From contig CBDBDI010000003.1 of NCBI GenBank assembly GCA_965203895.1, forward strand, positions 200,584 through 264,583: a stretch of DNA of 64,000 nt, in the 5' to 3' direction. How positions within the stretch are numbered: position 1 is the stretch's first letter; the number at the start of each line of letters is the position of its first letter. The DNA is from Dehalococcoidia bacterium. GTDB lineage: Bacteria; Chloroflexota; Dehalococcoidia; Lucifugimonadales; JADFKI01. The position numbers and the translations under genes are program-made. Positions 3,887 through 64,000 of this stretch are shown in pieces. The notes beneath the pieces are model-generated. The model was not told the DNA's origin. It searched no databases and was given only the letters and a program-made list of their open reading frames with translations.

Positions 3887-4207
3887 ATGAGCGATGAGGT
3901 TGTGCGCTGGCCGGAGGTGCGGCAAATCCTGTCCGATATTATGCAGCGCTGGGAGCGACGCGAAAAGCGGCGGGGACTGCCGGGCATACACGGCTACTAC
4001 TGGGACACGCCGCAGGAGCTTGCGGACGATTCCGCTATGGGTATGAAGTTCATCGAGGCGGGCGTGCCGGCGTCCGAAACGGCGCTGGTGGTATCGCTGC
4101 GGCGCGGGCTTGGCAGCATACCCAAGATGCCTATGGGCGGGCCGTTCCTCACTGAAGAGGATATTCGCAAGATTGAAGACTGGATCGACAACGGAATGCC
4201 TGAGTGA
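3887..4207 (+). CDS. Hypothetical protein (106 aa)
   Basis: The ATG at 3887 follows ggggag. The protein-like sequence is MSDEVVRWPEVRQILSDIMQRWERRE..GYYWDTPQELA..MGGPFLTEEDIRKIEDWIDNGMPE. No family recognised. Confidence 0.55.
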   Translation: MSDEVVRWPEVRQILSDIMQRWERREKRRGLPGIHGYYWDTPQELADDSAMGMKFIEAGVPASETALVVSLRRGLGSIPKMPMGGPFLTEEDIRKIEDWIDNGMPE

Positions 4208-4246
4208 GAGCGTCGTCGCGTTCGGCGTTACAAGAGAGGTTCGGCG

Positions 4247-4681: not shown

Positions 4682-4701
4682 CGGCGCGCGCGGCGGGGCG
4701 G

Positions 4702-4728
4702 TTTTAACGCAAAGGCGCAAAAGGGGGG
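4702..4728 (+). repeat. Short variant of the dispersed repeat
   Basis: ttttaacgcaaaggcgcaaaagggggg, 21 nt after the OsmC stop. It is preceded by ggcggggcgg, as at 7171. Confidence 0.75.
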
Positions 4729-4793
4729 CGGTGTGTGGTATTATCTTGAGGTATTGCCGCCGGCGGTGAAGCGGCTAGGAAAGGATTTTCGCG

Positions 4794-5027
4794 ATGTCGA
4801 CCGAAACGCGGGAACGGACTGATGCCGACGTCGACGCCCCCGACGCCAAGGCAAAATGGGCGACTAAGGCGGATGTCGACGTAGTGTTGTCGAAGGTCGC
4901 TGAACAGAGCGTAGAAGTTGGCAAGACTCACACCACGCTGAAGTGGATTGCGTGGATACTCGGCGGGCTGTTCCTGATGGTAGCGGCGCTGGTGTTCTTG
5001 TTGCTTGCCATTGCGTTGCGCCTTTAG
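4794..5027 (+). CDS. Small tail-anchored membrane protein, copy 1 of a tandem pair
   Basis: 77 aa: an acidic N-terminus, KWATKADVDVVLSKVAEQSVEVGKTHTTLKWIAW, then the TM helix ILGGLFLMVAALVFLLLAIALRL. RBS aggaaagga. Confidence 0.65.
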   Translation: MSTETRERTDADVDAPDAKAKWATKADVDVVLSKVAEQSVEVGKTHTTLKWIAWILGGLFLMVAALVFLLLAIALRL

Positions 5028-5080
5028 CGGGCGGCGAGCGAAAGGTTGCGCAGGCAAGCGGCTAGGGAAGGATTTTCGCT

Positions 5081-5311
5081 ATGGCAACTGAAACGCAAGA
5101 ACGGGCTGACACCGACGTCGACGACATCGACAAGATGAAATGGGCGACGAAGGCGGATGTCGACGCCGTGTTGGCGAAGGTCGCTGAACAGAGCGTCGAA
5201 GTCGGCAAGACTCACACCACGCTGAAGTGGATTGCGTGGATACTTGGCGGGCTGTTCCTGATGGTGGCGGCGCTGGTGTTTTTGCTGCTCGCCATTGCGC
5301 TGCGCCTTTAG
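5081..5311 (+). CDS. Small tail-anchored membrane protein, copy 2 of a tandem pair
   Basis: 76 aa, near-identical to copy 1 from KWATKADVD to the C-terminus. It lies on a 287-bp tandem duplication that includes the RBS and the post-stop sequence tagcgggcggcg. Confidence 0.65.
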   Translation: MATETQERADTDVDDIDKMKWATKADVDAVLAKVAEQSVEVGKTHTTLKWIAWILGGLFLMVAALVFLLLAIALRL

Positions 5312-5471
5312 CGGGCGGCGCGCGAAAGACTATTGCAGTCTGACAGTGCAAAGCCTAATCCGCTTATCGCATCCAAGCCTATGCCAATACGCTAAACGAA
5401 CTATACGCCGAACCCAAACGAAAGCACACACAAACACACCCATATCACTATCACCCTAAGGAGGCGCTTCA

Positions 5472-6164
5472 TTGCCAAACCTGACTCCGGAGCAGCTGGA
5501 AACTCTGCGGCAGATTCCGTCCTGCTCTATCGCCAACGCCATCGAGACTTTCGATGTGATGCCGCGCACTGAGGGCTTTATGCTGCCCGCCATCAAGTCC
5601 ATATTCCCGGATATGGAGCATATGATTGGCTATGCGGTTACCGCCGTCATATCCGCCGATATGCCGCCAAGCGCTCATATGAATGTGTCCCGCCTCGACT
5701 GGGTGGACGCGATACTGCAGGTTCCGGAGCCGCGCGTGCTGGTGCTGAAGGACATCGACTATCCCAACGTCATAGGCTCGTTTTGGGGCGAAGTGCAGGC
5801 GAACATTCACAAGGCGCTCGGCTGCGTGGGGACAGTTACGGACGGCGGCGTGCGCGATCTGGACGAAATGCGCGAGCTGGGCTTCAACGCCTTCGCCTCC
5901 GATGTGCTGGTGTCCCACGCCTATGTGCATCTGGTAGAGGTTGGAACGCCGGTTGCCGTCGGCGGGCTTGATGTGCGAATGGGCGACATCATCATGGGCG
6001 ATAAGCACGGCGTCATCAAAGTGCCGCACGACATCGCCGCCGCCGTCCCCGCCGCCGTCAAGCGCGTGGAAGACAGGGAGCGAGAGATGATTAGCCTCTG
6101 CCAAGCGCCCGATTTCAGCGTGGACAAGCTCAAGGCGCAGCTCCGCAAGATGTACGGCGGGTAA
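5472..6164 (+). CDS. RraA family protein (RNase E regulator / HMG-aldolase-like fold)
   Basis: GSFWGEVQANIHKALGCVGTVTDGGVRDLDEMRELGF. A TTG start follows the strong RBS aaggagg. Confidence 0.75.
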   Translation: MPNLTPEQLETLRQIPSCSIANAIETFDVMPRTEGFMLPAIKSIFPDMEHMIGYAVTAVISADMPPSAHMNVSRLDWVDAILQVPEPRVLVLKDIDYPNVIGSFWGEVQANIHKALGCVGTVTDGGVRDLDEMRELGFNAFASDVLVSHAYVHLVEVGTPVAVGGLDVRMGDIIMGDKHGVIKVPHDIAAAVPAAVKRVEDREREMISLCQAPDFSVDKLKAQLRKMYGG

Positions 6165-6194
6165 CGGGCAAACGGATAACAAGAGGTGTGCGCT

Positions 6195-7166
6195 ATGTCG
6201 GCAAAGGTGGTGTTTCTACACGGGCTGCGGCCTGAGATTGTGGATGTAATCACGGGACACACGCCGCAGGGTTGGACGACGACCGCGGTTCACCGCGACG
6301 AGCCGCTCGATCGTCAGACGGCGCTGGCGCGCGGCGCCGATTTCCTGATGGTGTATGCCGCGCCGCTGCCCGACGAAGTTCTGCGCGCCGCGGACAAAAC
6401 TCGCCTAGTGCAGCTTCTGGCGGCGGGCTACGATAGGATGAACCTGCCCCTGATGAGCGCGCTGGAAGTCCCCTGCGCCAACAACGGCGGCGCGAATTCA
6501 TGGGCGGTGGCAGACCATACATTGCTGCTGATGCTGGCGGTCTATCGGCGGCAGACGCACGCCGATCCCGCAACGCGCGCCGGCCGCTGGAGCGCGCCCA
6601 TAAGCGGCACGAACACCTTCGAGATGGCGAACAAACTCGTGGGCGTACTCGGTATGGGCAACATCGGGCGGCAGGTGGCGCGCCGCGTTCAGGGCTTTGA
6701 CGCGCAGGTTCAGTATTACGATATGTATCCGCTGCCGGAAGAGCGCGAGCGTGAGCTAAATGTGCGGCGGGTTTCGCTCGATACGCTGTTTCGCGCGTCG
6801 GACATTCTCACCTGCCACACGCCGCTTACGCCCGATACGCATCACATCGTCAACCGCGAGCGCCTGGCGCTGATGAAGCCCACGGCGGTTGTCATCAACA
6901 CAAGCCGCGGCCCCGTGGTGGATGAAGCGGCGCTGATAGAGGCGCTGCGGCAGGGCAGGATTGCGGGCGCAGGCTTGGATGTGTTTGAGCGAGAGCCGGT
7001 GGATCCCGCCAACCCGCTGCTTGCGATGGACAATGTGGTGGTAACGCCGCACAGCGCCGGGACTACTTGGGACACCTGGTTTCGGCGCGCCGAATTCGCG
7101 TATGAGAATATGATGCGCGTTTGGAACGGCGAAGCGCCGCTTGCCATAGCGCGGGAATTCGACTAG
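6195..7166 (+). CDS. D-isomer-specific 2-hydroxyacid dehydrogenase family (NAD-binding)
   Basis: VGVLGMGNIGRQVARRV (Rossmann motif), INTSRGPVVDEAALIEAL, GAGLDVFEREP, TPHSAG. The ATG at 6195 lies 8 nt after aagagg. Confidence 0.85.
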   Translation: MSAKVVFLHGLRPEIVDVITGHTPQGWTTTAVHRDEPLDRQTALARGADFLMVYAAPLPDEVLRAADKTRLVQLLAAGYDRMNLPLMSALEVPCANNGGANSWAVADHTLLLMLAVYRRQTHADPATRAGRWSAPISGTNTFEMANKLVGVLGMGNIGRQVARRVQGFDAQVQYYDMYPLPEERERELNVRRVSLDTLFRASDILTCHTPLTPDTHHIVNRERLALMKPTAVVINTSRGPVVDEAALIEALRQGRIAGAGLDVFEREPVDPANPLLAMDNVVVTPHSAGTTWDTWFRRAEFAYENMMRVWNGEAPLAIAREFD

Positions 7167-7182
7167 CGGCGGCGGTAGGCGG

Positions 7183-7216
7183 TTTTAACGCAAAGGCGCA
7201 GGGACGCAAAGATGAA
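7183..7216 (+). repeat. Dispersed octamer-periodic repeat, full copy
   Basis: ttttaacgcaaaggcgcagggacgcaaagatgaac, 17 nt after the 2-hydroxyacid dehydrogenase stop. Confidence 0.85.
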
Positions 7217-7249
7217 CGGATACGATAATAAAGATAACGGGAGGGCGAT

Positions 7250-7561
7250 TTGGAACCGGTCATAAAGAACTATGAAGGCGAAGCCAATCCGATTTTGGGG
7301 CCGCAGGACGGCGTTCCCAACTATGTGATGCTGTATGTGCAGCATCCGCCGGGCGGCGCAAGCCCGGGACACATACACGCTTGGGAGCATCAGGCGTTCA
7401 TCACGGAAGGGGCGGGTGTGCTGTGGGTTGAAGGCAAAGAGTATCCCATCAAGCGGGGGGACGCCGTGCTTGTGCCGCCCAATGTGGAGCATCAGTTTCG
7501 CAATACGGGCGATGTTACGCTGAGCCGCGTAACCGTGAACCCGCTCAGTTCGGTGGAGTAG
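7250..7561 (+). CDS. Cupin domain protein
   Basis: GGASPGHIHAWEHQAFITEGAG...GDAVLVPPNVEHQFRNTG (cupin motifs 1 and 2). A TTG start follows gggagg. Confidence 0.8.
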   Translation: MEPVIKNYEGEANPILGPQDGVPNYVMLYVQHPPGGASPGHIHAWEHQAFITEGAGVLWVEGKEYPIKRGDAVLVPPNVEHQFRNTGDVTLSRVTVNPLSSVE

Positions 7562-12712: not shown

Positions 12713-14419
12713 CTAAAACGCGTCCTCTTCCTCTGCCATTCGGGCGAAGTCGGCGTGGGTGTAGCTGGCCAGGCTGCGGAAGTCGAGCTCGGTGTAGTTC
12801 TTTATCCAGCGCAGCGAGACTTTGTATGCCTTGTGGTAACGCGCCGCCTGCTCTTGGTATTGCGCTTGGGCGTCCGCGTCGTCGGCGGGCAGCGCCGCCT
12901 TGCGATGCTTGAGGATGTCCGCCGTCTCTTCTTGCAGCAGGCGCTTGGCGAGCGCGAAGTCGTGGCGCTGTTCGGTGTCTTCGGCTATCGCGCCGTGTAG
13001 GATGCGCTGCGCCGTCTGCGCCACGGATATGCGCCCGGTGGCGAGGTCTTCCATCAGCGCAGGGTGAGCGCCGGGCTGCCCTTCTAGGCTGTCTATGCCC
13101 TTTGCGCCGCGCCCGGCGAGCCATCCCTCAACATATTCGATTATCATTCGGGCGTTGCGGCGGGTGCCTTCGGCGGTGATTGGGCCTTCGGGGCGCTCTA
13201 TGCTGACGGGGTAGTTGGCAGGATCGTCCATGCCTCCGGCAGGCTGCCAGTCGGCGGTGATATGCTCTTTGAACGGATCGCTTGCGGTCTTCATATGGAA
13301 GATGTGCGCCACCCAGCCGCGCAGAAAGCCCTGCTGCGCTTCCCATACCTTGTCGGCGCGGATGGATGCGGCGGCTATCTTGTTGATTTCGTCGTCGCGG
13401 CTTGGCAGCGCGGTCGCCATGCCGCCGATGGGGACGGCGCCGCGCTTGAGGCATACGGCTACCAGACGGCGGAATATGTTCGCCATAAAATCGGTGGTCT
13501 TGATGTCCACGCCAAAGCGGTCGGGCCATACCATATTCGGGTCGGCCATAATGTACTCCAGGATGCTTGCCTTCAAGTCCCAGCGCGCGGCGTTCAACCC
13601 GGCGGCGTAGGGTCCGAGTTCGTGAAGCAGATCCTCCATTATGTACACGGCGGGCAGCGATTCCACTAGGAATATGGCGCGTATGACGGCGTCGGCGGGG
13701 TAGCCCAGCCGCTCTTTGCTGAAGTCGAAGAAGTCGCGGTAGAACGCCGCCTCTTCAATCACTTCGACTTTGGGCAGGTAGAAGTACAAGCCCTGCCCGC
13801 GCTCCACCTGCGCCCTGCCGCCGTATGCGAATGTGAGCGCCATGCCGAGTATGGTGGCGGGTATCGGGCTGCCGTCAACGGCGAAGTCGTGTTCGTCTAG
13901 GTGCAGCGCTCGCTCGCGGTGCATAAAGAAGGGCGTATCGCCGTCTGCGATGGCGTAGGTGCGGTTGCGCGCGGGGTTGTGGAATGACAGTGTGCGCTCG
14001 GTGATGCCCAGCCGATTGCGGGCGGCGTTCAGCGTGTCCGCAAGGTTATGGCCGCCGGAGTCTTCGTCGTCGTCGAGGTAGCCCACGGCGCGCTCGCCTT
14101 CGGGGCCGGGGTTGACGGCGTTGATTGCCATATTGACGATGGACACGGGGCCAGAAATCTCTATGCCGGGGATGCGCAAGTCGTCGGGGACGGGCGGCGT
14201 CTGCCAATCGCCGGCCGCGGCGGATTCGGCTGGGAAGCCGGGCATAACGCCGTCGTGGAGCGCGCGGCGCAACTGAGCGGCGCGCTTGTTTCGCACATCT
14301 TGGACGCGGTCGGCGAACTTGTCATACGCTTCGGTAACATAGTCTAAGAATTCGGGAGTGAACAGGTCTTCAGTGCCTTCTACGTTAGTCCAGCAGACCC
14401 TGCTTGCGGTTGTTGACAT
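12713..14419 (-). CDS. aceB: Malate synthase (A-type family)
   Basis: GLYFYLPKVE, IRAIFLVESLPAVYIMEDLLHELGPYAAGLNAARWDLKASILEY and IEISGPVSIVNMAINAVN match malate synthase A blocks. Length 568 aa. Confidence 0.8.
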   Translation of the reverse strand: MSTTASRVCWTNVEGTEDLFTPEFLDYVTEAYDKFADRVQDVRNKRAAQLRRALHDGVMPGFPAESAAAGDWQTPPVPDDLRIPGIEISGPVSIVNMAINAVNPGPEGERAVGYLDDDEDSGGHNLADTLNAARNRLGITERTLSFHNPARNRTYAIADGDTPFFMHRERALHLDEHDFAVDGSPIPATILGMALTFAYGGRAQVERGQGLYFYLPKVEVIEEAAFYRDFFDFSKERLGYPADAVIRAIFLVESLPAVYIMEDLLHELGPYAAGLNAARWDLKASILEYIMADPNMVWPDRFGVDIKTTDFMANIFRRLVAVCLKRGAVPIGGMATALPSRDDEINKIAAASIRADKVWEAQQGFLRGWVAHIFHMKTASDPFKEHITADWQPAGGMDDPANYPVSIERPEGPITAEGTRRNARMIIEYVEGWLAGRGAKGIDSLEGQPGAHPALMEDLATGRISVAQTAQRILHGAIAEDTEQRHDFALAKRLLQEETADILKHRKAALPADDADAQAQYQEQAARYHKAYKVSLRWIKNYTELDFRSLASYTHADFARMAEEEDAF

Positions 14420-14584
14420 TGATTGTTTCTCCTAAGAAATGGCTAGTGATTGAGATGCGTGTGTGAGCGTCAAAGCGGTTTCGGTGATACAGACGTCGTC
14501 GACCGCTTTGGCGGCAGCAAGCAGGTTAAGTTTATTCTGCTATGCCGATGTTAGTCAAATTGCGATTGGGCGCGCACGCAAGCG

Positions 14585-14616
14585 CTCAACGCAAAGGCGC
14601 AGCGGCGCAAAGTGGG
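14585..14616 (+). repeat. Dispersed octamer-periodic intergenic repeat, full copy
   Basis: ctcaacgcaaaggcgcagcggcgcaaagtggg. Confidence 0.8.
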
Positions 14617-14805
14617 AGGCAAGTGGCTTGGCGCAGGCGGCGTCAGAATATCGCGATGGGATTGACGGGGCTGCCGGTTACATTTCGCAGAATCAACGGG
14701 CCCATGCTGAGCATGAATTCGTAGCGGTTGCGGCGTTTGCATTCGGCGGCGATGCGCTCTAGGTTGGCGTTGTCGATGAGCCATAACCCCAGAGTTACTT
14801 GGAAA

Positions 14806-14836
14806 TTTCAACGCAAAGGCGCAGAGACGCAAAGCG
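14806..14836 (+). repeat. Dispersed octamer-periodic intergenic repeat, full copy
   Basis: tttcaacgcaaaggcgcagagacgcaaagcg. Confidence 0.85.
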
Positions 14837-14895
14837 TTTCCCTATGGGATGAGTTTGCGCGCGGGAATGGCGGCGACTATCGGGGGTGCCTTACC

Positions 14896-15384
14896 TTACA
14901 TAGAAAGCCCTTCGACGAATTGAGCGCCAGGGATTTTGGCGATGGCGTCGGGCGCAACCTTTATCTTTGATGAGCGGCTGCCGGAGCCTAAGATGACATA
15001 GTCTAGCGCGCGCAGTTTGGCGTCGGCGTACACGGGCAGATCCGGCGGCAGCGCAAACGCCGTAACGCCGCCTATCATCATTCCTGTGAGCTGCATCGTC
15101 TCATCGGCGGACGCAAACGATGCGCGCGAAACGCCCATGAGCCGCTTCACCGTCTTGTTGACATCCAGGCGCGCGGAGCCTTGCACGATGCAGGCGCAGT
15201 ATTTCTTTGCGCCGCGCTTGGACGCCACAATGATGGTGTTGCCGCTGCTCTCAAGCGTGTAGCCGTACTTTTCGCAGAACTCGGCGGTGTCTGCGTATTC
15301 AGGATCGATTTGGATAAGCTCATGCGGAATAGCGAGGCTTTGCAGCGTAGAAACCACCTGCGCCTCAATGTCCGTAGATGTCAT
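14896..15384 (-). CDS. YbaK/ProX-type aminoacyl-tRNA editing (deacylase) domain protein
   Basis: NTIIVASKRGAKKYCACIVQGSARLDVNKTVKRLMGVSRASFASADETMQLTGMMIGGVTAFAL. Confidence 0.75.
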   Translation of the reverse strand: MTSTDIEAQVVSTLQSLAIPHELIQIDPEYADTAEFCEKYGYTLESSGNTIIVASKRGAKKYCACIVQGSARLDVNKTVKRLMGVSRASFASADETMQLTGMMIGGVTAFALPPDLPVYADAKLRALDYVILGSGSRSSKIKVAPDAIAKIPGAQFVEGLSM

Positions 15385-15499
15385 ATGCAGCGATACCTCT
15401 GTTGCATGATGTTTAGTTTGATGTGTGGCAATGGAGTTGCGCCAATGATATGGGGGGGATGCAGTCCGCTAACTAACAAGGGGGCTTTGTTCGAACTTG

Positions 15500-16312
15500 C
15501 TACTCGCCGCGCAGACGGCGCAGTTCGGCTTCCATTTCGGCTATGCGGGCTTCGGCGGCCAATCGCGCGTTGCGCTGATATTCTGCGCTCTCTTCGGCCG
15601 CCAATCGCGCGTTGCGCTGATATTCTGCGCTCTCTTCAGCCGCCAATCGCGCGTTGCGTTGCAATTCAGCATCCTCTTCGGCGTCTAGCCGCGCCTGCTC
15701 CAACTCCCTAGCGTTGAGCAGAAACTCGCCGCTCACGGGGTCGCGAAAGCGCAACTCGCCATCGTCCCACCACAACTCCAGCCCCAGAACCGCGCTGTAT
15801 CCCCACAGGCGGGCGGCGGGATCACGCGCTATCGTCAGCGGCTCATACTCGCCGTTCGCCAGCATATCGCCCGCAAGCGGGGCGTCGTGAAACCGGCCGC
15901 CCGTGCGGTCAAACCGCCAGTATTCGCTCACTCCGTAGCCGGCGTAGCCCGCGCGCTTGACCGTGTAGTCGCGTACGCCGGTGCTTTTGGACTCGACCTC
16001 TAGCACGAAATCGGGCGGCTTGCCCACTTCGCTTATCACATAGCCGTTTCGCGCTATGATGGCGTCGGGGTTGACGCCGAATGCAACCACCAAGTCGGGC
16101 GCAAGGCGCTCGGATTCGTTGGTAGCGTCGTGTCTGAGATAGCCTTCGCCGCTAATCAGCGCATCGCTGCGGTTCGCAAAGTGCGCCTGCAATGCTGCGC
16201 CGGCGGTGAGTAGGCTGTCTAGTTGCTGCATATCGTAGTTTCGCGGTGGGTCTGGTAGCGGCTCTAAGTGGGAGTAATCGTAGATATGGGGCAGTGCGCT
16301 TTTGGTGGTCAT
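15500..16312 (-). CDS. Uma2 family (DUF820) putative endonuclease with a C-terminal coiled-coil repeat extension
   Basis: APDLVVAFG..PDFVLEVESKSTGVRDYTVKRAGYAGYGVSEYWRFD is the Uma2 signature. The C-terminal tail is AEESAEYQRNARLA x3. Confidence 0.8.
   Translation of the reverse strand: MTTKSALPHIYDYSHLEPLPDPPRNYDMQQLDSLLTAGAALQAHFANRSDALISGEGYLRHDATNESERLAPDLVVAFGVNPDAIIARNGYVISEVGKPPDFVLEVESKSTGVRDYTVKRAGYAGYGVSEYWRFDRTGGRFHDAPLAGDMLANGEYEPLTIARDPAARLWGYSAVLGLELWWDDGELRFRDPVSGEFLLNARELEQARLDAEEDAELQRNARLAAEESAEYQRNARLAAEESAEYQRNARLAAEARIAEMEAELRRLRGE
15550..15675 (-). repeat. Three tandem 42-nt repeats inside the Uma2 CDS
   Basis: cttcggc(g/c)gccaatcgcgcgttgcgctgatattctgcgctct occurs at 15550, 15592 and 15634. 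The third copy is diverged. Confidence 0.85.
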
Positions 16313-55672: not shown

Positions 55673-56629
55673 ATGGTCTTGCTGGGTTCGGGCGAATACA
55701 GGTATGAGGTATCGGGCGATAACTGGGGCAGTCTGCCTGAAGGCGCTGTGTATAGAGAGGCGACGGCGGTGGATGTGAGCGCCGATGACAGCGTGTATGT
55801 GTTCAATCGCGGCACGCATCCGATGGTGGTGTTCAATACGGAGGGCGAGGTTATTCGCACTTGGGGACACGGGATATTCACCAATCCGCACGGCGTAACG
55901 GTAGCGCCCGACGGCACGATTTGGTGCGTGGACAACGGCGATCACACGGTGCGGCAGTTCACGCCCGACGGCGAGCTGCTGAACACCATCGGGCGGCCGG
56001 GCATACCCGCCGAGTCTATGAGCGGCAAGCCGTTCAGCGCGCCCACGCATGTGGCGTTTGACACGCGCAACGGCGATTTCTATGTGGCAGACGGCTACAG
56101 CAACGCGCATGTGCATAAGTATTCCCCGGACGGCAAGCATCTGTTCTCTTGGGGCGCCTCAGGCACGGGCGAAGGGCAGTTCAACATCGTCCACTATGTT
56201 GGGGTTGACCCTGACGGCTGGGTGTATATCGCCGACCGCGAGAATCACCGCATACAGATATTCAGCCCGGAGGGCAAGTTCGAGACGCAGTGGGTCAACC
56301 TGTCGCGCGCCGCATGCCTGTACATCAACAGCAAGGGCGATGGGCTGGTGTATATCGGCGAATACTACGGCGGCATCGGCTCAAACTATGTCGGCACGGA
56401 TCTGGGTCCGCGGGTGTCCATACTGAACACCGAGGGCAAGGTGCTGGCGCGGCTGGGACGGGAATCGTACGGCGACGAGCCGGGGCGGTTCTATTCGCCG
56501 CACGCCATCGCGGTGGACTCCAAGGGGGACATCTATGTGGCTGAGGTGTCTTGGAGCGATTACGGCAGCAAGCTCTATCCGCCCAAGGAGCTGCGCTCGA
56601 TGCAGAAGCTGGTGAAGCAGAACGGCTAA
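55673..56629 (+). CDS. NHL-repeat six-bladed beta-propeller protein (peptidyl-hydroxyglycine lyase-like)
   Basis: Repeated blades: PHGVTVAPDGTIWCVDNGDHTVRQF, PTHVAFDTRNGDFYVADGY, VGVDPDGWVYIADRENHRIQIF, PHAIAVDSKGDIYVAEV. The ATG at 55673 follows gaggaaag. Confidence 0.75.
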   Translation: MVLLGSGEYRYEVSGDNWGSLPEGAVYREATAVDVSADDSVYVFNRGTHPMVVFNTEGEVIRTWGHGIFTNPHGVTVAPDGTIWCVDNGDHTVRQFTPDGELLNTIGRPGIPAESMSGKPFSAPTHVAFDTRNGDFYVADGYSNAHVHKYSPDGKHLFSWGASGTGEGQFNIVHYVGVDPDGWVYIADRENHRIQIFSPEGKFETQWVNLSRAACLYINSKGDGLVYIGEYYGGIGSNYVGTDLGPRVSILNTEGKVLARLGRESYGDEPGRFYSPHAIAVDSKGDIYVAEVSWSDYGSKLYPPKELRSMQKLVKQNG

Positions 56630-56688
56630 CGGCTTGGGATGCGGCGGCTATCCGGTTGGATGGCGTGAAAACAAGGCAAGGGCATCGG

Positions 56689-57030
56689 ATGACAACACCG
56701 CTGGGCGTCGACAGCGTTGAGCTGACGGAAGAGGGCGTGACTATCGCGTGGAGCGATGGGCATTCCAGCTTCTACGGCTCCAAGTATCTGCGTATCAACT
56801 GCGGCTGCGCCGAGTGCGTGGAGGAATGGACGAACCGCAGGCTGCTGGATCCGGCGACGGTCGACGCGGACATCCAAGCGGTGGACTATCTGCCGATTGG
56901 CAAGTATGCGCTGCAGTTCTTGTGGAGCGATACGCACTACACGGGCATATATCCGTTTGAGATGCTGCGGATGCTTTGCCCGTGCGACGAGTGCAAGGCG
57001 GCGCAGGGGCAGCGAATAGCGCCCGAATAG
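56689..57030 (+). CDS. DUF971 (gamma-butyrobetaine hydroxylase-like N-terminal domain) protein
   Basis: YLRINCGCAECVEEWTNRRLLD...LQFLWSDTHYTGIYPFEMLRMLCPCDEC. Confidence 0.7.
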   Translation: MTTPLGVDSVELTEEGVTIAWSDGHSSFYGSKYLRINCGCAECVEEWTNRRLLDPATVDADIQAVDYLPIGKYALQFLWSDTHYTGIYPFEMLRMLCPCDECKAAQGQRIAPE

Positions 57031-57054
57031 CAAGGGCATCCGCCATAACGCAAT

Positions 57055-57088
57055 AAAGGGGCCGGCGTTTTTAGCGCGCGGCCCCTTT
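57055..57088. terminator. Bidirectional intrinsic terminator between convergent genes
   Basis: aaaggggccg-(14 nt, containing ttttt)-cggccccttt forms a 10-bp stem flanked by A/T runs on both sides. Confidence 0.7.
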
Positions 57089-57115
57089 GTTATGTGCGCA
57101 TGAGACGGGTTTGGG

Positions 57116-57532
57116 TTAGACGGGCTTGAACTTGAGCAGCGCGATGTCGTCGGTGACGTGATCGAACACTACCTCAAGGGGCATGCCGATGATGAGGTTT
57201 TCGGGCGTGGGGTCGTCGATGACGATGTTGGTGGGCATGATGGGGCCCTCTTCGAGTTCCACCAAGGCGGTAACGAAGGGGACGTCGCCCACGAAGCCGG
57301 GGTGCGGCGCGCGGTGGACGATGGCGTAGGTGTAGAGCGTCGCCCTGCCGCTTGCCTTAATCCAAGTGGTGTCCTTGGAGAAGCAGTAGGGGGAGATGTC
57401 TCTGGGGTAGAAGTACGCCTTGCCGGTGGTGTTGCAGAATCGCAGATGGAGTTCGCCTTCCTTCGCCTTCTGCCAGTACACATCCGACTCCACCTGCGGC
57501 ACGGGGAGCGGCTTGTTGTATGCCTGTGTCAT
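57116..57532 (-). CDS. Zn-ribbon/OB-fold protein (DUF35), thiolase partner
   Basis: YWQKAKEGELHLRFCNTTGKAYFYPRDISPYC..ASGRATLYTYAIVHR..VALVELEEG. The ATG at 57532 follows aggag. Confidence 0.75.
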   Translation of the reverse strand: MTQAYNKPLPVPQVESDVYWQKAKEGELHLRFCNTTGKAYFYPRDISPYCFSKDTTWIKASGRATLYTYAIVHRAPHPGFVGDVPFVTALVELEEGPIMPTNIVIDDPTPENLIIGMPLEVVFDHVTDDIALLKFKPV

Positions 57533-57623
57533 TTGCGTTTCTCCTGATGATTGTTTGAGATTGCTTGACGGGCGCAAGCGCGGCTATGCGCCTATCGCGG
57601 CGCCCGTCTGCGCTTGGACGGGG

Positions 57624-58766
57624 TTAGTCGACGCCTAGCACGACGGTGCCGGTCGACGACAGGGAGCCGCCGGTGCCGTTGATGAGGCAGAGGCGTGGGT
57701 CGTCGAGTTGGCGCTCGCCGGTTTCGCCGCGGAGCTGCCGGACGGCTTCCAGCACAAGGAACATGCCGTACATGCCGGAGTGGGTGTAAGAGAGTCCGCC
57801 GCCGCTGGTGTTCATAGCGAAATCGCCGCCGGGCGCAGTGCGCTGGTTGGCGACAAAGTCGGGGCCTTCGCCCGGTTCGCAGTAGCCGAGGCTTTCCAGC
57901 GTGGCAAGCACGGTGTAGGTGAACGAGTCGTATATCATCGCCAGGTCGATGTCGTCGTGGGTAACGCCCGCCATTTGGAGCGCGGCGGGGCCGGAGTAGC
58001 GCGCCCAGGTGCGGGTGAGGTTTTTCATTTGGCTGATGATGCCGTGGTCGTGGCCTTCGGCTGCGCCGAGCACCCATACGGGCTTTTTGGCGAGGCTGCG
58101 TGCGCGTTCAGGCGTGGTGACCACATACGCGCCGCCGGCGTCGGTTACGAGGCAGCAGTCGAATAGGTGGAAGGGCCATGCGATCCAGCGCGAGTTGTGG
58201 TAGTCGTCGAAGCTCATGGGCTGGTCTTTCATGTACGCCTTGGGGTTGAGCTGCGCCCACTTGCGGGTTGCGACGGCTACTTCTGCCATGCCTTGCCGGA
58301 CGCGCCTTTCGCCGTACATGTGCATATAGCGGCGGGCTGCCATAGCGTAGTTGATGGGGGCGCCGATGAAGCCGTAGGGCGTCTCGAACTGGGCGCCGGG
58401 GTCGGATGCGTTGCCGCTGGCGCGCGATCGGGCGCTTCTGCCCGCTTCGCCGTGCGTAACCAGCACAGTATCGCAATAGCCGGCGTTGATGGCGGCTAGG
58501 GCGTGCGCGATGTGGATGATGAACGACGAGCCGCCCACGGCGGTGGTGTCGGTGAAGGTGGGATTGACGCCTAGGTATTCGCCTAGGTTGATGGTGGAAG
58601 TCCCCGCGGTCATAAGCCCGTTGACGTCGGACATTTTGAGGCCGGCGTCTTCGAGGGCGTTGTACGCCGCTTCTGCGTGGAGCTGCAGGTTGGACTTTTC
58701 TACTCTTCCGATTTCGTCGGATTCCGCCACTCCAACGATGGCGGCCGACTTACGCAAATCTGCCAT
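57624..58766 (-). CDS. Thiolase-fold protein (SCP-x / lipid-transfer-type, non-condensing partner of DUF35)
   Basis: 380 aa. AIVGVAESDEIGR.., GGSSFIIHIAHALAAINAGYCDTVLV, NTSGGGLSYTHSGMYG. Confidence 0.8.
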   Translation of the reverse strand: MADLRKSAAIVGVAESDEIGRVEKSNLQLHAEAAYNALEDAGLKMSDVNGLMTAGTSTINLGEYLGVNPTFTDTTAVGGSSFIIHIAHALAAINAGYCDTVLVTHGEAGRSARSRASGNASDPGAQFETPYGFIGAPINYAMAARRYMHMYGERRVRQGMAEVAVATRKWAQLNPKAYMKDQPMSFDDYHNSRWIAWPFHLFDCCLVTDAGGAYVVTTPERARSLAKKPVWVLGAAEGHDHGIISQMKNLTRTWARYSGPAALQMAGVTHDDIDLAMIYDSFTYTVLATLESLGYCEPGEGPDFVANQRTAPGGDFAMNTSGGGLSYTHSGMYGMFLVLEAVRQLRGETGERQLDDPRLCLINGTGGSLSSTGTVVLGVD

Positions 58767-58868
58767 TCTTAATAGCGCCTCCCGTGAATGATTTGGATGA
58801 TAGATTGCAAGTGTGTGCGAAAATGCTGGGGCGCAAGCGCGCCGATGCCGATAGCCGTAAGAGCGCGC

Positions 58869-58921
58869 AACGCCTATGCCGCTGAGCAGGGGGCGTAGAA
58901 ACGCCTATGCCGCCGAATAGG
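58869..58921 (+). repeat. Two ~22-nt direct repeats carrying CGCCTATGCC
   Basis: aacgcctatgccgctgagcagg (58869-58890) and aacgcctatgccgccgaatagg (58900-58921). The same 10-mer recurs at 61199-61208. Confidence 0.8.
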
Positions 58922-58970
58922 ATATACCTTGCGGGGGGTAAAAGTCAAAAGGGGATGCCAGGAAGGGGGA

Positions 58971-59456
58971 TTATTGCTTCAACGCTTTGGTCAACGGCGA
59001 GCCGCATCGAACCAATCTAATAGATTCCTTATGATTACGAAATTGAACTTGATTCGCGGGTTTCAAAAAGTTAACTCGCTCGATACGTCGGAGTTCACCG
59101 CCATAAACTGCGGTGGGGCGAAACCTGACCGCAACCCTAGATGGGATGAGCTTATCGGCAATGGATGCGCCCGCCTTCAATTGAGGAAGAAATTTGCTAA
59201 CCCGCGCTGCGCTCGCCGTTAGTTCTATCGGCATTACCCATGAGGTTCCGTCCCCATCGTCGCCGGCGACGAATAGGTAGTCGCAACGGGGTTCCCCTTG
59301 CTGAACGGGCGATGCTTGATGTTCCAAAGAAACCAGCACATAGGGTTGAGGCGCTCCGTTCAATGATAGCGAGCATCCTCCGTCGCGACATGCCGTCGCG
59401 TGACATTCCGGGTCGGTTCTGCCTTTGACCGCGTCGACTACGCTAGACGGCATCAT
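58971..59456 (-). CDS. Hypothetical 161-aa protein translationally coupled to the upstream ATPase
   Basis: The ATG at 59456 overlaps the ATPase stop (ATGA). Sequence features include DPECHATACRDGGCS and CDYLFVAGDDGDGTSWVMPIELTASAARVSKFLPQLKAG, a D...ExT nuclease-like pattern without Lys. No family recognised. Confidence 0.6.
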   Translation of the reverse strand: MMPSSVVDAVKGRTDPECHATACRDGGCSLSLNGAPQPYVLVSLEHQASPVQQGEPRCDYLFVAGDDGDGTSWVMPIELTASAARVSKFLPQLKAGASIADKLIPSRVAVRFRPTAVYGGELRRIERVNFLKPANQVQFRNHKESIRLVRCGSPLTKALKQ

Positions 59457-61036
59457 CCTTCCTCTATGCGGCTGGAGATTTCCGCCCATCGGTTGTACAG
59501 ATCTTCGGTTACCAAACCAAACCCAGACGGGAATGTTCCAGCGTCAGCCTCTAGATTGATTTCCTTGACGATAGAACCTTTTCGCTCGGCATCGTGTTCG
59601 AACAGCCAAGCGCCTACTTGGGCGGGAGTGAGCGCAATATCGGGGTCGTCGAGACCTTGCCGGCGTTCAGGCGGGAGTTCGGACAGCCTGACAAGGTTTG
59701 CCAGCTCTTCCAATACCCATTCGCTGTGAGTTGTGATGAGAATGCGGACGCCCGCCTGAACCGCAGATGCAAGCAGGCGCGTGAACTCTACTTGCATCTG
59801 CGGGTGAAGGTGCGCTTCGGGTTCTTCGATGATGAGCAGATCGCCAGGCTGAACCACATGGCGCAAGTACAGCGCGACCGGCGCCAATTCGGACACCATA
59901 GAGGAAACGTTCGTCAGCGGCAGGTTGCGCTCCTCCCATCCGTCGGGGTGATAGACAAACGAAGGGTATGAGATTTGCCTTTGCTCGACTCGCACTTCAC
60001 CGCGCATTATCTGGCGTTCCAAGTCTGACGCGAGATGATCGTATGCTGAATTTCTTTCGCGGAAGTAGAATTGCGGTTGATCCACCAACTCAACAAGTTG
60101 ACTCAGGAAATCGCCAAGAACCCCGGATAGCGTGGGCCTCTGAGGTTCAGGGCGCAATGCGATGCGCGAGGCTCTATCTATGATACCGCGCACTGCTATT
60201 TGATGGGCGTGCATTACTCCGGCTCGGTCGGCAGGGAGGTAGTGAACAGGGGCGCCAAGATGTCCAACAATATCGGAAACGACCGACATAGCAAGGTAGT
60301 TGAGCATTGGGATTGCTAAGACGTTCGCGCTGTCTCGCTCTTCTTCTATGTCGAATATGTCATTCCATAGTAAGAAGGTGGGGTATGCCAGAGCAACCTG
60401 TTGTGGCATATATGGAATAGAAGCGCGTATTTCGAATCCCTGTTCTGTTGCCGTGAATTTATACTTGCAGGGATTGTTTGCGGTGCTGATGGACAAAGCG
60501 ACTTTGGATTTTGAACTCTGATAGCGAAGCAAAGTTTCAGCATCGGCTATCCCAAAGCATCTGATTATCTCACCCGTTATGGTTTCGTCTAAGTGCGAAA
60601 CATCGTTCAGCATTGTCGACAATATATCCACAACCGATTCTGGTATATCAACTGATTCACTTCCAGGAATGGACGGGGCAACCAGTCTTCCTTCGCGTGT
60701 AGTCGAAGATTTCTTCGCCATATCAATCAATTCTTTCGCCCAGTCTGAAAGAATTTTTACATCATTTTCTGACAGAGCGAGATCATCTCTAAGTGTAGGA
60801 GATGGTTGCAACGTAAGCTCGGGAATTAACCCAAACCTGCGATGATTAAGCGCAGAGTACACCCCGAAGAAACGATGCAACGCATATGTCAGAATGGCGA
60901 GGTAGGATTTGCCGGTGTTGCTGGGTCCTACGAACACGGTCATAGGGCGCAACTCAACGCGCCCCTCTGCGATGGGGCCGAAATCGGAGACCGTCAGCTC
61001 AAGGGATTTTGTTTTCGTGGCCGGCGATGCAACCAT
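59453..61036 (-). CDS. ABC/SMC-like AAA_15/AAA_21-type ATPase (OLD/AbiL/Septu/PARIS-class ATPase architecture, no fused nuclease)
   Basis: Walker A VFVGPSNTGKSY. Walker B and D-loop region GDLLIIEEPEAHLHPQMQ, then ILITTHSEWVLEEL. The ATG at 61036 (MVASPATKTKSLELTVSDFGPI) follows aggaaaca. Confidence 0.75.
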   Translation of the reverse strand: MVASPATKTKSLELTVSDFGPIAEGRVELRPMTVFVGPSNTGKSYLAILTYALHRFFGVYSALNHRRFGLIPELTLQPSPTLRDDLALSENDVKILSDWAKELIDMAKKSSTTREGRLVAPSIPGSESVDIPESVVDILSTMLNDVSHLDETITGEIIRCFGIADAETLLRYQSSKSKVALSISTANNPCKYKFTATEQGFEIRASIPYMPQQVALAYPTFLLWNDIFDIEEERDSANVLAIPMLNYLAMSVVSDIVGHLGAPVHYLPADRAGVMHAHQIAVRGIIDRASRIALRPEPQRPTLSGVLGDFLSQLVELVDQPQFYFRERNSAYDHLASDLERQIMRGEVRVEQRQISYPSFVYHPDGWEERNLPLTNVSSMVSELAPVALYLRHVVQPGDLLIIEEPEAHLHPQMQVEFTRLLASAVQAGVRILITTHSEWVLEELANLVRLSELPPERRQGLDDPDIALTPAQVGAWLFEHDAERKGSIVKEINLEADAGTFPSGFGLVTEDLYNRWAEISSRIEEG

Positions 61037-61198
61037 GGCAGGTTGTTTCCTGTTCGGGTAGGTCTTGGTGTGCGGCGCGATATGCCCCGCACACACAGTA
61101 GCATAGCGCATATCCCTAGCGGATGTCTAATCCTAACTTCTGTTGATAGCCGTTCTCTTGAGAACATCCGAGGGCGGTAGGGCAGCACTGAGGGACAG

Positions 61199-61208
61199 CG
61201 CCTATGCC
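61199..61208 (+). repeat. Third copy of CGCCTATGCC, upstream of the ATPase cassette
   Basis: The context is cagcgcctatgcctaagg. With the copies at 58871 and 58902 it brackets the two-gene cassette. Confidence 0.6.
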
Positions 61209-61283
61209 TAAGGCTAAACCCGCGGCGGCGCTCAATGTCTATGCGCCGTGCCGCGGGCTTGGGGTTGCTGCGCGGGCGCGGCG

Positions 61284-61610
61284 CTACTGCAGCGGCGAGT
61301 AGTCCGTGGGGGTTAGCGTGGTGTTGAAGACGCGCTTGACGATGAGGCCGTCGGCTTCGGATTCGGCGCGCACTTTCGCCCATTCGGGGTCGTTGCGGAA
61401 GGCGTTCCATGCGCGCTCGCGATGGGCGGCGTCCTCGAATGCGATGATGTAGATGAGGCGGTCGCTGTAGTCGCCCACGTCGGCGGTGAAGTAGCCGATG
61501 TTCTTGATGCCGTGCTTCTCGAATATCTTCATGGTGTGGTCTCGGAAGCGGGCGTTGATGTTGGGCAGTCTGCCGGGCAGGGTTTCGTACACGCGGTATT
61601 CGTAGAGCAT
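61284..61610 (-). CDS. NIPSNAP family protein
   Basis: MLYEYRVYETLPGRLPNINARFRDHTMKIFEKHGIKNIGYF...ERAWNAFRNDPEW. The ATG at 61610 follows aggagg. Confidence 0.8.
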   Translation of the reverse strand: MLYEYRVYETLPGRLPNINARFRDHTMKIFEKHGIKNIGYFTADVGDYSDRLIYIIAFEDAAHRERAWNAFRNDPEWAKVRAESEADGLIVKRVFNTTLTPTDYSPLQ

Positions 61611-61848
61611 AGGGGCGGCCTCCTGTGGCGTTGATGGGTTTAGCGTGATGGGTTTGTGGCGCAATTGTCTTTGCGTTGACGGCGTTTGTCAACTGCCTGC
61701 GCATCCAGTCGATGACTAGGTTGAGGGTTGAAGATACGCTTTTCGGCGGCGAATTCCCCCAGCGGCGCAAGTGGCTGGCGCAGCAAGTGCTCGTTGCTAT
61801 AATCGGAGCGGCCGCAGCGCGCCAACAAAGTAGATACGGACGAAGGCT

Positions 61849-62070
61849 ATGAGTTGGGCAAGCAGCGAAATCGTTAGCATATTTGTGTTCCTGTTGCCCG
61901 GATTCGTGGCGGCGGCGGTATTCTATTCGCTAAGTTCGTATCCCAAGCCCAATGAATTCGGACGGGGCATTTAGGCGCTAGTCTTCACGATGATTGGGCA
62001 AATCATCGCCTTGAGCGTCCAACAACTAACAATCAGGACAACAACGCCCATGAAATTTTTGTTATCATAG
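61849..62070 (+). pseudogene. Remnant of a membrane-protein gene with an in-frame TAG
   Basis: MSWASSEIVSIFVFLLPGFVAAAVFYSLSSYPKPNEFGRGI*ALVFTMIGQIIALSVQQLTIRTTTPMKFLLS*. It lies in an AT-rich stretch that has no ORF of 60 aa or more. Confidence 0.4.
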
Positions 62071-62321
62071 TACCTGTGGAAGATGTAAAAATGGTAGAGT
62101 TTATGGAACCGGGCGTTTATGATGATGTTGCGAAGTAGGATATGGTTAGAAAATCGAAACCGTCGTAGCGCAGACTTCGCGAACTTTCAGGAAATAGAGC
62201 GGCTAGGCATATCCGCAAAGCCTGAAAGCATCAGGAAACTGCCGCTATCGCCGCCAAGGCAGAAGTAACGCAGACTGCAGCCGTTGCGTCGGCTAATCGG
62301 TGGTTCGCGCGTCGCAGCAAT

Positions 62322-62406
62322 GGGGAAGTGTCGGAATTGGCAGACGAGCATGACTTAGGATCATGTGCCGCAAGGCGTGGGAGTTCGAGTCTCCCCTTCC
62401 CCACCA
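62322..62406 (+). tRNA. tRNA-Leu (anticodon TAG)
   Basis: Acceptor GGGGAAG/CTTCCCC, anticodon arm CATGA-CTTAGGA-TCATG, long variable arm, T-loop GAGTTCGAGTCTC, encoded CCA. Confidence 0.9.
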
Positions 62407-62578
62407 TCGCCTCTACTTCTTGCCGCAGCCTAACGCGACGCACACTCAGCGGCGTGAGTACCCCTAGAACAGCGCGTTGAGCGCATCCTGCGGGCTAATT
62501 GCGGGTATGGGCGAATGCGTGAAATCCCTTGTAATGATGTACTGAGAACCGCATGCAATAGCCCGCGAAATGCGCCCG

Positions 62579-64000
62579 CTATCCCCCCAGCGCTTGCTTT
62601 GCGGCGGCTTCGCCCGCTATCTTGCCGAACACCGCGCCCGACATCAGCCCTGAGCCGCCCGGATAGTTGTTGTAGAACAGCCCGCCCGTCAGCTCGCCGG
62701 CGGCGTACAAGCCGGGGATGGGCGCGTTCTCGCCGTCTATCACCTGCGCCGATGCGTTTATCTTCAGCCCGCCGAATGTGAATGTCAGCCCGCAGGTTAC
62801 CGCATAGCCCATATACGGCGGCTCATCCAGCGTCAGCGCCCAGTTGGACTTGGGCGGCGCAATGCCTTCGGTGCGCTTGCCGTCCAATGCGGTGGGGTTG
62901 TACTCCCCCGGCTGCACGGCTGCGTTGTATTCGCTGACCGTCCGCGCCAGCGCCGCCGCATCGATGCCAAGCCCGTCCGCAAGCGCCTCAACGCTGTTCG
63001 CCTCCACTACTGACGCCTGCGGTATGAAGTATTCGTCGCGCAGCAGATGCTTTGTCTTTTGATCGAAGAGTTGAAACGCCACGCGCTGCGGTTGCGCTAG
63101 TATCTCTTTGCCGTACTTGGCGTAGGTGTAGTTGCGCAGATCCGCCCCTTCATCAACGAAGCGCCTGCCCTCCACATTCACGATTAGCCCGAATGGATAT
63201 GAGTGCTTCTGAAAGAGATCCGCGATGTTGCGGTCGCCGAACTGCGGGGCGTTCATATCCCAAGCGACGGCGTGGCAGCCGCTCCAATGCCCGTATGACT
63301 GCGCCCCGATGTCCAGCGCCATCCGTATGCCGTCCCCGGTGTTGAACTGCGTCCCGCGCACCTTCGCCAGCTCCCAGCCCGGGCCCAAGTAACGCGTCCG
63401 CATCTCAGCGTTGGACTCGAAGCCGCCGCACGCCAGAACCACCGCTTGCGTCTCGATGTCGCGGTAGCCATCTGCGCCGCGCACCCGCAATCCCGTTATG
63501 CGCCCCCGATTGTCCGTGATAAGACTATCCGCCTTCGTCTGATAAAGTACGGGAACGCCTTTGCGCTGCAAGATGTCGAACTGCTGGTCGACAAGCCCTT
63601 TGCCTGCGCCCACCGCCTCCACAATCAGCCCGCCCCAAAAGCGCAACGCCCCTTCGTGGCGGAACGCCTGCCGCCCGTATGCGAGTATCCAGCGCACGCC
63701 TTGCCGCTGCAGCCACTGCATCGTTGGATAGGACTGCGATACTAGCGTTTGCGCCAGTTCGGGGTCGGACAAGCCTTCGGTAACGCGCATCAGGTCGTCA
63801 TAGAACTGCGCTTGGGTGTAGCGCCCCACGTCGATGCTGCGCCGTTCCTCTTCGCCAATCTCAGGGATGATGTCCACAATCTGGTCTATGCCGTCGTATG
63901 CGAAACGGAACAGCCCGCCGGTGAAGAACGAGTTGCCGCCGCGCAGATACTCAGGCGCGCGCTCCAACACCAGCGCCGACGCCCCCTGTTCGGCGGCCGC
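62579..64000 (-). CDS. FAD-binding dehydrogenase (fumarate reductase flavoprotein / tricarballylate dehydrogenase TcuA-like); 5' end outside the window
   Basis: The frame is open to the window edge (..AAAEQGASALVLERAPEYLRGGNS). VLACGGFESN, and C-terminal GLYAAGELTGGLFYNNYPGGSGLMSGAVFGKIAG. Confidence 0.75.
   Translation of the reverse strand, partial: AAAEQGASALVLERAPEYLRGGNSFFTGGLFRFAYDGIDQIVDIIPEIGEEERRSIDVGRYTQAQFYDDLMRVTEGLSDPELAQTLVSQSYPTMQWLQRQGVRWILAYGRQAFRHEGALRFWGGLIVEAVGAGKGLVDQQFDILQRKGVPVLYQTKADSLITDNRGRITGLRVRGADGYRDIETQAVVLACGGFESNAEMRTRYLGPGWELAKVRGTQFNTGDGIRMALDIGAQSYGHWSGCHAVAWDMNAPQFGDRNIADLFQKHSYPFGLIVNVEGRRFVDEGADLRNYTYAKYGKEILAQPQRVAFQLFDQKTKHLLRDEYFIPQASVVEANSVEALADGLGIDAAALARTVSEYNAAVQPGEYNPTALDGKRTEGIAPPKSNWALTLDEPPYMGYAVTCGLTFTFGGLKINASAQVIDGENAPIPGLYAAGELTGGLFYNNYPGGSGLMSGAVFGKIAGEAAAKQALGG

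Follow-up and report, generated by a model that had tools for sequence, protein, structure and literature searches.

The window analyzed here is a 64,000-nt stretch of DNA from a Dehalococcoidia bacterium (contig CBDBDI010000003.1), and all positions refer to the whole of it unless a related locus (L001-L138) is named. On its reverse strand, between unrelated metabolic genes, lie a gene for an ABC-type ATPase of the OLD/PtuA-like kind and, directly after it, one for a small partner with a predicted PD-(D/E)xK nuclease fold (Table 1). An earlier note, made from the letters alone, took this pair for a candidate two-gene defense cassette with a new, very small effector or adaptor. Comparison with the related loci allows its anatomy, its relatives and its history to be described, and a role in anti-phage defense to be weighed.

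The two genes are held together closely. The ATGA that joins the ATPase stop to the partner start, already noticed in the earlier note, is found where expected, and an ATPase homologue of 43-54% identity ends exactly at the partner start in 50 of 50 loci, which comprise 46 species-representative genomes (metagenome-assembled genomes, MAGs, labelled Latescibacterota, Caldilineaceae, and Dehalococcoidia) and four metagenome loci. In a further six of six loci the ATPase gene lies directly upstream of the partner gene, bringing the total to 56/56 in the same order, and the two genes are neighbors in each of the 60 related loci compared in all. More distant partners (31-40% identical) are paired with an ATPase likewise. 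The junction is mostly TAATG or ATGA, with a GGAGG-like sequence before it. The ATPase reading frame could be extended to 552 residues from position 61111, but this finds no support in the N-termini of 76 homologues, and a promoter-like site also favors the start at 61036.

The pair is flanked by a thiolase gene and a DUF35/ChsH2-type gene on one side and by a NIPSNAP gene on the other; these family assignments agree with those first made by eye. The G+C content (GC) is 0.517 for the ATPase gene and 0.537 for the partner gene, against 0.627 for thiolase and DUF35 together, 0.609 for NIPSNAP, and 0.600 for the whole window. The pair is thus AT-richer than its neighbors, as the earlier note had judged (0.52-0.54 vs. 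0.61-0.63 in the flanks). A tRNA-Leu(tag) found by ARAGORN is 1286 nt from the ATPase start, matching the first estimate of about 1.3 kb. A gathering-threshold Rfam scan of 56000-64000 reported no family, tRNA included, and an exact look-up of the window's NIPSNAP protein returned no record.

Table 1. Features of the cassette and its surroundings, in window coordinates.
Feature	Position	Strand	Remarks
ABC-type (OLD/PtuA-like) ATPase gene, 527 aa	59453..61036	-	open reading frame (ORF) list, Pfam, PADLOC, homologue N-termini, fold model
Walker A GPSNTGKS	60905..60928		ATPase residues 37-44
ATPase variable insert, from Walker A to PADR	60251..60901	-	residues 46-262; presumed sensor or oligomerization insert
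Walker B LLIIEEPE	59816..59839		ATPase residues 400-407; AHLHP after it
H-loop TTHS	59723..59734		ATPase residues 435-438
ATGA stop/start overlap	59453..59456	-	ATPase TGA with partner ATG (translational coupling)
Partner gene, 161 aa	58971..59456	-	small predicted PD-(D/E)xK-fold nuclease, PDC-M47B / PD-T4-4_B / WonB-like group
Partner nuclease core, residues 53-161	58974..59300	-	49.5%-identical allele in L137/L138
Partner C18	59403..59405
Partner C28	59373..59375
Partner C58	59283..59285
Partner D59	59280..59282
Partner E78-L-T80	59217..59225
Partner R85	59202..59204
Partner C151	59004..59006
Promoter-like TAGACA-N18-TATGCT	61100..61129	-	5' of ATPase start; consensus match only
Inserted segment, approximate	58950..61270		compared with cassette-free L053/54, L056/57, L102, L055
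Native thiolase promoter-like TTGACT-N18-TATCCT	58919..58948	-	kept, with GGCGGC after it, in cassette-free genomes; marks 3' boundary of insert
31-nt-period repeat in thiolase leader	58840..58921	-	contains GGCATAGGCG
Downstream CGCCTATGCC copies	58871-58880, 58902-58911; degenerate third 58840-58849		units of 31-nt repeat
Upstream CGCCTATGCC copy	61199..61208	+	inside insert, about 65 nt from its 5' boundary
tRNA-Leu(tag)	62322..62406		ARAGORN

The ATPase and its partner

The ATPase has the motifs of its class. GPSNTGKS, PADR (residues 268-271), LLIIEEPEAHLHP, and TTHS are all present and are invariant in the 76 homologues, while the signature motif is deviant (SSMVSE, residues 378-383), and a C-terminal extension occupies about residues 450-527. 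Pfam assigns the protein to AAA_15 (3e-22) and AAA_21 (6e-15), and the description of a 527-residue ABC/SMC-like ATPase with a Walker A and an ITTHS stands. In the PADLOC ranking, PD-T4-4_A comes first (5.7e-37, 126 bits), followed by PDC-M47A (3.7e-30), NsnB, and AriA (5.7e-22), then GajA (3.5e-13) and Old. Aligned by BLASTP with PD-T4-4_A of the Klebsiella plasmid pKPN6, the ATPase scores 4e-18 over 491 columns at 21% identity. The AlphaFold2 model (predicted local distance difference test, pLDDT, 77; predicted template modeling score, pTM, 0.84) has as its nearest structures PtuA of Septu and of retron I-A (E 1e-11 to 1e-9), then the heads of SMC, Rad50, and RecN (E to 1e-8); by sequence, the match to PtuA is marginal (E about 2e-3). 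The profile and fold matches support a place for the ATPase among the ABC/OLD-like sensors on which two-gene anti-phage systems rely, in agreement with what its architecture had first suggested.

The partner in the window matches no Pfam, PADLOC, NCBIfam, or PHROGs profile at E<=1, and searching PDB sequences with the profiles of the clade and of the family brought up no meaningful match. Its relatives number 108 at 90% clustering (about 160 residues, 32-89% identical), and none carries a Pfam domain. When the clade profile is run with HMMER against 1.84 billion representatives, 1005 clusters are reached at E<=1e-3 and 606 at E<=1e-10, and the wider family consists of about 1,000 clusters at 50% identity. 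Alignment of 141 diverse members yields the consensus RCDYLF...WVxPxELKxG...QLQAGA, in which C28 and E78 are invariant and C18, C58, D59, Q92, G96, and C151 nearly so. To judge from this alignment, the family motif is a D...ExK...Q nuclease signature. Scanned singly with PADLOC, 54/141 members match PDC-M47B at E<=0.01 (best 1.7e-7), and 2/141 match PD-T4-4_B. When the wider-family profile is compared by hhalign with 8-12 WonB and “novel restriction endonuclease (REase)” sequences (Supplementary Tables 4-5 of PMC12137116), the probability is 90-92% (E 5e-7 to 1e-6, 87 columns), with CD(Y/F)L, ELK, and Q aligned in register. HMMER gives about 10 bits only for the same pairing, and a database search with the family alignment recovers metagenomic proteins only, no named member such as Vibrio WonB.

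The AlphaFold2 model of the partner is confident (pLDDT 92.8, pTM 0.90). Foldseek finds weak matches only for it in PDB and BFVD (E 0.02-1, template modeling score about 0.3), and nearly all of them are PD-(D/E)xK nucleases: NucS, MspJI, FokI, BspD6I, SgrAI, HamA, an Mrr-domain protein, and herpesvirus UL24. The fold, the family motif, and the links to known families thus place the partner in the group of small REase-fold nucleases that pair with ABC ATPases. The relatedness indicated by the alignments is at the superfamily level, without family-level membership in any described subgroup. Neither PADLOC, Pfam, nor NCBIfam gives a match to the HNH (PtuB), Toprim (AriB, GajA, OLD), or RloB/AbiLii-type effectors, and the earlier note was right that the partner shows no HNH, Toprim, RloB, or DUF4276 character. 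Its statement that the protein fits no family holds for direct profile scans but not for the wider family, which aligns with the WonB group. Its proposal of a new kind of effector is not supported, as the partner appears to be a divergent member of the PD-(D/E)xK “novel REase” group, which already pairs with such ATPases in PD-T4-4, WonAB, and PDC-M47.

Comparison with PD-T4-4, WonAB, and other systems

PD-T4-4, an “ATPase, nuclease” pair from E. coli ECOR58, was validated against phage T4 (Vassallo et al., 2022; PMC9519451) and is treated as a PD-(D/E)xK nuclease-NTPase system forming higher-order complexes (bioRxiv 10.1101/2025.07.10.664194). The window's cassette resembles it in being a two-gene operon with an ABC ATPase gene upstream of a gene for a small PD-(D/E)xK nuclease, a predicted one in the window. 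PD-T4-4_A is the best PADLOC match of the ATPase, with a near full-length alignment, and both ATPases have the EEPE.HLHP Walker B and the TTHS H-loop. They differ in that the window's ATPase is 50-70 residues longer, with another insert, and in that its partner has ELT where PD-T4-4 has D/ExK. Against the PD-T4-4_B of pKPN6, whose system is bona fide (A 772 bits, B 309 bits), the partner-family profile gives E 0.021 and a probability of 2% in hhalign, and the clade profile gives no match with a single PD-T4-4_B.

WonAB of Vibrio cholerae requires both genes, the ATPase motifs, and K71 of WonB, and acts by lysis-independent abortive infection with translation arrest (Adams et al., 2025; PMC12137116). 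Over-production of WonB causes toxicity, only with active WonA; it is predicted to dock on WonA's C-terminal extensions in their dimerized state, and its proposed target is RNA of the translation apparatus (PMC12137116). Its authors describe a larger family, uncharacterized, in which ABC-ATPase sensors go together with nucleases, PD-T4-4 included, and cite Krishnan et al. (2020) for a computational description of the architecture (PMC12137116). Like the window's cassette, with its predicted nuclease, WonAB combines an ABC ATPase whose motifs deviate in an OLD-like way with a nuclease of about 16-18 kDa carrying CD(Y/F)L...ELKG...Q(L/I), in the same gene order and with a C-terminal extension on the ATPase. 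The window's ATPase, WonA, and PD-T4-4_A have Walker A, PADR, Walker B, and the H-loop in common. However, the likeness of the window's ATPase to WonA is confined to the N- and C-terminal ABC motifs (BLASTP 1e-7 to 1e-11), the signature is SSMVSE as against SSGQQE, the N-terminal parts of the partners are unlike, and the position of WonB K71 is occupied by Thr.

Two other systems come close. The computational PADLOC candidate PDC-M47, for which a literature search found no paper, is approached through the match of the ATPase to PDC-M47A and through the 54 wider-family partners mentioned above. Septu PtuAB and retron I-A follow the logic proposed for the cassette, with a small nuclease held and gated by an oligomer of an ABC ATPase, and PtuA is the closest solved structure, but PtuB is an HNH nuclease, unlike the predicted PD-(D/E)xK fold found here. 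Membership in Septu, PARIS, Gabija, or AbiL was considered and rejected, as the partner gives no match to them and the ATPase scores to AriA, GajA, and Old are below that to PD-T4-4_A.

The cassette is therefore best read as a two-gene anti-phage (conflict) module of the PD-T4-4/WonAB-like kind, working by abortive infection or by restriction, an OLD/PtuA-like ABC ATPase with a small PD-(D/E)xK nuclease, and we give this a probability of about 0.65. A mechanism can be proposed from PD-T4-4 and WonAB together with the anatomy of the cassette. The ATPase would dimerize or oligomerize through composite ATP sites, and its hypervariable insert (residues 46-262) would sense an infection cue. Its C-terminal extension would hold the nuclease in a complex, probably via the Cys-rich N-terminal 50 residues of the latter. 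Once licensed by the ATPase, the nuclease would cleave nucleic acid, and this cleavage would abort the infection.

Several observations pull the other way. The ATPase is only 21% identical to PD-T4-4_A and reaches 126 bits where true members reach 304-772. The partner has 161 residues against 190-210 and matches no PD-T4-4_B model, neither it nor its clade matches PDC-M47B, and the profile of its clade aligns with WonB at a probability of 5-14% only. The partner lacks the canonical catalytic Lys, the K71A mutant of WonB has no activity (PMC12137116), and a compensating role for R85 is suggested by covariation only. The pair stands outside any defense island, with metabolic genes on both sides. 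Within several lineages it keeps a fixed single locus across many species, which is unusual for mobile defense genes, and in one lineage (L133-L136, about 3700-7490) its place is directly downstream of recJ. Three divergent partner alleles share this context, which may be coincidental or may reflect a functional link to the processing of DNA ends.

The missing lysine calls for a closer look at the active site. D59 and E78 fall on predicted strands 60-64 and 72-80, and the Lys position that follows, position 80, is Thr in 84/84 members of the window's clade. The earlier note had correctly read a D...IELT segment without the Lys; in the wider family the same position is Lys in 106/141 sequences, Thr in 28, and Ser in 4. 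K-type relatives match PDC-M47B weakly, typically with 15-26 bits. A basic residue (K/R) at position 84 is found in 0/106 K80 sequences vs. about 62% of T/S80 sequences, and at position 84 or 85 it is found in 30/32 T/S80 sequences. Within the window's clade, R/K85 is present in 73/84 and K88 in 81/84. Migration of the catalytic lysine to a neighboring element has been documented in this superfamily (PMC3424549). Since T/S80 covaries with a new basic residue, the T80 clade is better seen as an active-site variant than as a dead enzyme, and the catalytic lysine appears to have been relocated to the basic residue at +4/+5 (R85 here).

The same site is the source of the alternative that survives best, though we consider it unlikely. 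In line with the adaptor option of the earlier note, the partner would be a catalytically dead pseudo-nuclease, serving as a nucleic-acid-binding adaptor or a regulator of the ATPase, and the effector would be elsewhere or absent. The uniform Thr of the clade would fit, as would the essential role of the equivalent Lys in WonB; inactive REase domains are known in conflict systems, and one family member weakly matches Pfam NA-iREase3. However, D59, E78, and Q92 are still invariant or nearly so, the covariation of T/S80 with the basic residue at +4/+5 points to relocation of the Lys and not to its loss, and the nuclease core is a swapped segment (see below), as expected for an active effector under selection.

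A second feature of the partner lies in its cysteines. C28 is present in 141/141 members of the family, C58 in 138, C151 in 132, and C18 in 124, and WonB-type proteins likewise have a Cys adjoining the catalytic Asp. This pattern of conservation suggests that the four residues form a structural Zn or Fe-S (iron-sulfur) site.

Insertion, fixed loci, and mosaic change

A set of 80 metagenome contigs yielded the orthologous thiolase locus, and only the 8/80 that retain NIPSNAP (including L053-L057, L102, and L105) are informative on the insertion site. The ATPase and the partner are encoded in 0/8 of them. There NIPSNAP directly adjoins thiolase, and the spacer between them measures 190 bp in L056/57, 72 bp in L102, and 300 bp in L055. 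The spacer of L053/54, whose NIPSNAP and thiolase are each 94% identical in amino acids to those of the window, contains a different gene, for a 207-residue K+-channel-like protein with a TVGYGD filter (L053, 6190-6813), which shows that this spacer accepts different cargo. Because the cassette-free relatives hold an empty or otherwise filled site, the cassette is an insertion of about 2.3 kb in the window's lineage, with its 3' boundary within about 25 nt of the partner stop. The synteny comparison proposed in the earlier note thus finds the thiolase-NIPSNAP junction empty in L055, L056/57, and L102; the cassette is absent from these relatives at this locus, and its GC is foreign where a core gene pair would have matched its surroundings.

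The pair keeps to one fixed locus per lineage; this holds for 13 loci in Caldilineaceae, for two groups in Latescibacterota and three in Dehalococcoidia, and for the recJ group. The T80 clade occurs at 55-70% amino acid identity across MAGs labelled Latescibacterota, Chloroflexota Caldilineaceae, and Dehalococcoidia, which implies transfer between phyla. Several of the MAG names (SB0661_bin, IRC4_bin) resemble names used in sponge-microbiome studies. Together, these observations support the view that the pair is a translationally coupled, strictly co-occurring, and horizontally acquired two-gene module.

At these fixed loci the pair changes much faster than its surroundings. Identity in the six lineage groups amounts to 55-75% for the ATPase and 64-78% for the partner, vs. 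mostly about 80-97% for the well-conserved flanking proteins in 5/6 groups; Latescibacterota group B is too small for flanks to be listed on both sides, and the flanking ORF clusters with lower scores seem to be spurious, overlapping frames. The change is also mosaic. Between the window and L137, thiolase is 99.5% and residues 1-345 of the ATPase 100% identical in amino acids, against 49.5% for partner residues 53-161, with a nucleotide identity of 43-65% over 59300-59000. Between the window and L052 the pattern is reversed: thiolase is 99.2% and the partner core 94.5% identical, and the ATPase insert (residues 46-262) is at 65.4%. Where the core is swapped, the N-terminal 52 residues of the partner stay linked to the ATPase allele. 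Genomes that are otherwise near-identical have thus exchanged segments of the cassette, namely the ATPase insert and the nuclease core, independently of each other. A fixed position combined with accelerated, mosaic change is what diversifying selection on an immune gene should produce, and argues against housekeeping.

This bears directly on the idea that the pair is a housekeeping complex for DNA repair or recombination, in which an SMC/Rad50/RecN-like ATPase works with a dedicated nuclease. The ATPase fold does resemble the heads of SMC, Rad50, and RecN, the loci are fixed across many species within lineages, and in L133-L136 the neighbor is recJ. But the pair is missing from close relatives in which the flanking genes are retained, its GC is foreign, its rate of evolution is far above that of its flanks, with mosaic replacement of alleles, and its nearest characterized homologues are defense systems, so that such a role seems improbable. 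We see as little likelihood in a selfish module of the toxin-antitoxin or addiction type that has no primary role against viruses, with the nuclease as toxin, the ATPase as antitoxin, and maintenance by post-segregational killing. The Pfam label of AAA_21 (“putative AbiEii toxin, Type IV TA system,” TA standing for toxin-antitoxin), the toxicity of over-produced WonB, and the compact coupled unit are in its favor. However, the toxicity of WonAB needs an active ATPase, which rules out simple sequestration, and the loci found here are chromosomal and fixed, not plasmids or obvious mobile elements.

There remain the repeats that the earlier note saw as bracketing the cassette. CGCCTATGCC is indeed at 58871, 58902, and 61199, and is also found at 26197 on the other strand; these four occurrences compare with 0.25 expected, and 0/100 shuffles reach four. 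The cassette nevertheless does not end at these repeats. Being 3' of the promoter-like element common to cassette-free relatives, the downstream copies fall within the native thiolase leader, and they are units of the 31-nt repeat, of which L137 has three copies, the window two perfect and one degenerate, L138 two, and L052 one degenerate. This leader repeat may serve as an array of operators or be a regulatory region prone to slippage. The upstream copy is kept in the same-locus relative L052 and is absent from L137/L138, although both have this cassette at this site, and around the cassette outside the window's lineage (L001-L004, L006-L051) CGCCTATGCC was not found. A discrete mobile element beside tRNA-Leu, bounded by CGCCTATGCC direct repeats as target-site duplications or att sites, can therefore hardly be upheld: the 10-mer is over-represented, with three copies within 2.4 kb around the cassette, but the downstream ones belong to a variable-number repeat of the native leader, the upstream one is missing in L137/L138, the repeat is absent around the cassette in L001-L051, and there is no integrase or transposase. 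A tRNA-linked island was likewise rejected, since the native NIPSNAP gene stands between the tRNA and the cassette.

Wider meaning and further rearrangements

The cassette is a distant, so far unrecognized relative of PD-T4-4 and WonAB, not a new kind of system, and it defines no new type of immune mechanism. So far, members of its family come mainly from uncultured Chloroflexota, Latescibacterota, and other bacteria of marine or metagenomic origin. The family is large, with about 1,000 partner clusters and thousands of ATPase relatives in several phyla of uncultured bacteria, and its addition would extend the PD-T4-4/WonAB class well beyond Proteobacteria. Defense-finding tools such as PADLOC would miss the cassette, because its B component matches no model. 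The T80 clade offers a natural experiment on the plasticity of an active site, by way of the apparent relocation of the catalytic Lys, and the mosaic alleles show which modules are under diversifying pressure, namely the ATPase insert and the nuclease core.

It is also conceivable, although we find it doubtful, that the family is a distinct fourth branch of the immune systems made of an ABC ATPase and a mini-REase. Such a branch would be characterized by a re-wired D...E-x-T active site with its lysine moved to the following loop or helix, by a conserved four-cysteine metal site (C18, C28, C58, and C151), and by an ATPase sensor insert and a nuclease core swapped independently at fixed chromosomal loci. 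This would be a case of “mix-and-match” immune evolution, possibly with a substrate specificity unlike that of PD-T4-4 or WonAB.

Two further rearrangements were seen in the course of the comparison. In L002-L004 (about 13700-15600), the nuo (NADH dehydrogenase) operon is split between the gene of the 49-kDa subunit and nuoH by a DUF2442 gene, a PIN-domain gene, a 68-residue ORF, and a DUF2971 gene, while in L001 the operon is intact; this looks like an insertion of the TA or defense type into a core operon. In the window itself, the segment between NIPSNAP and tRNA-Leu(tag) (61665-62321) has a GC of 0.50-0.56 and a longest ORF of 62 residues. Synteny stops at 61700 with L137/L138, and at 61433 with L052, where NIPSNAP is cut short. 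A second rearrangement junction thus lies next to the tRNA.

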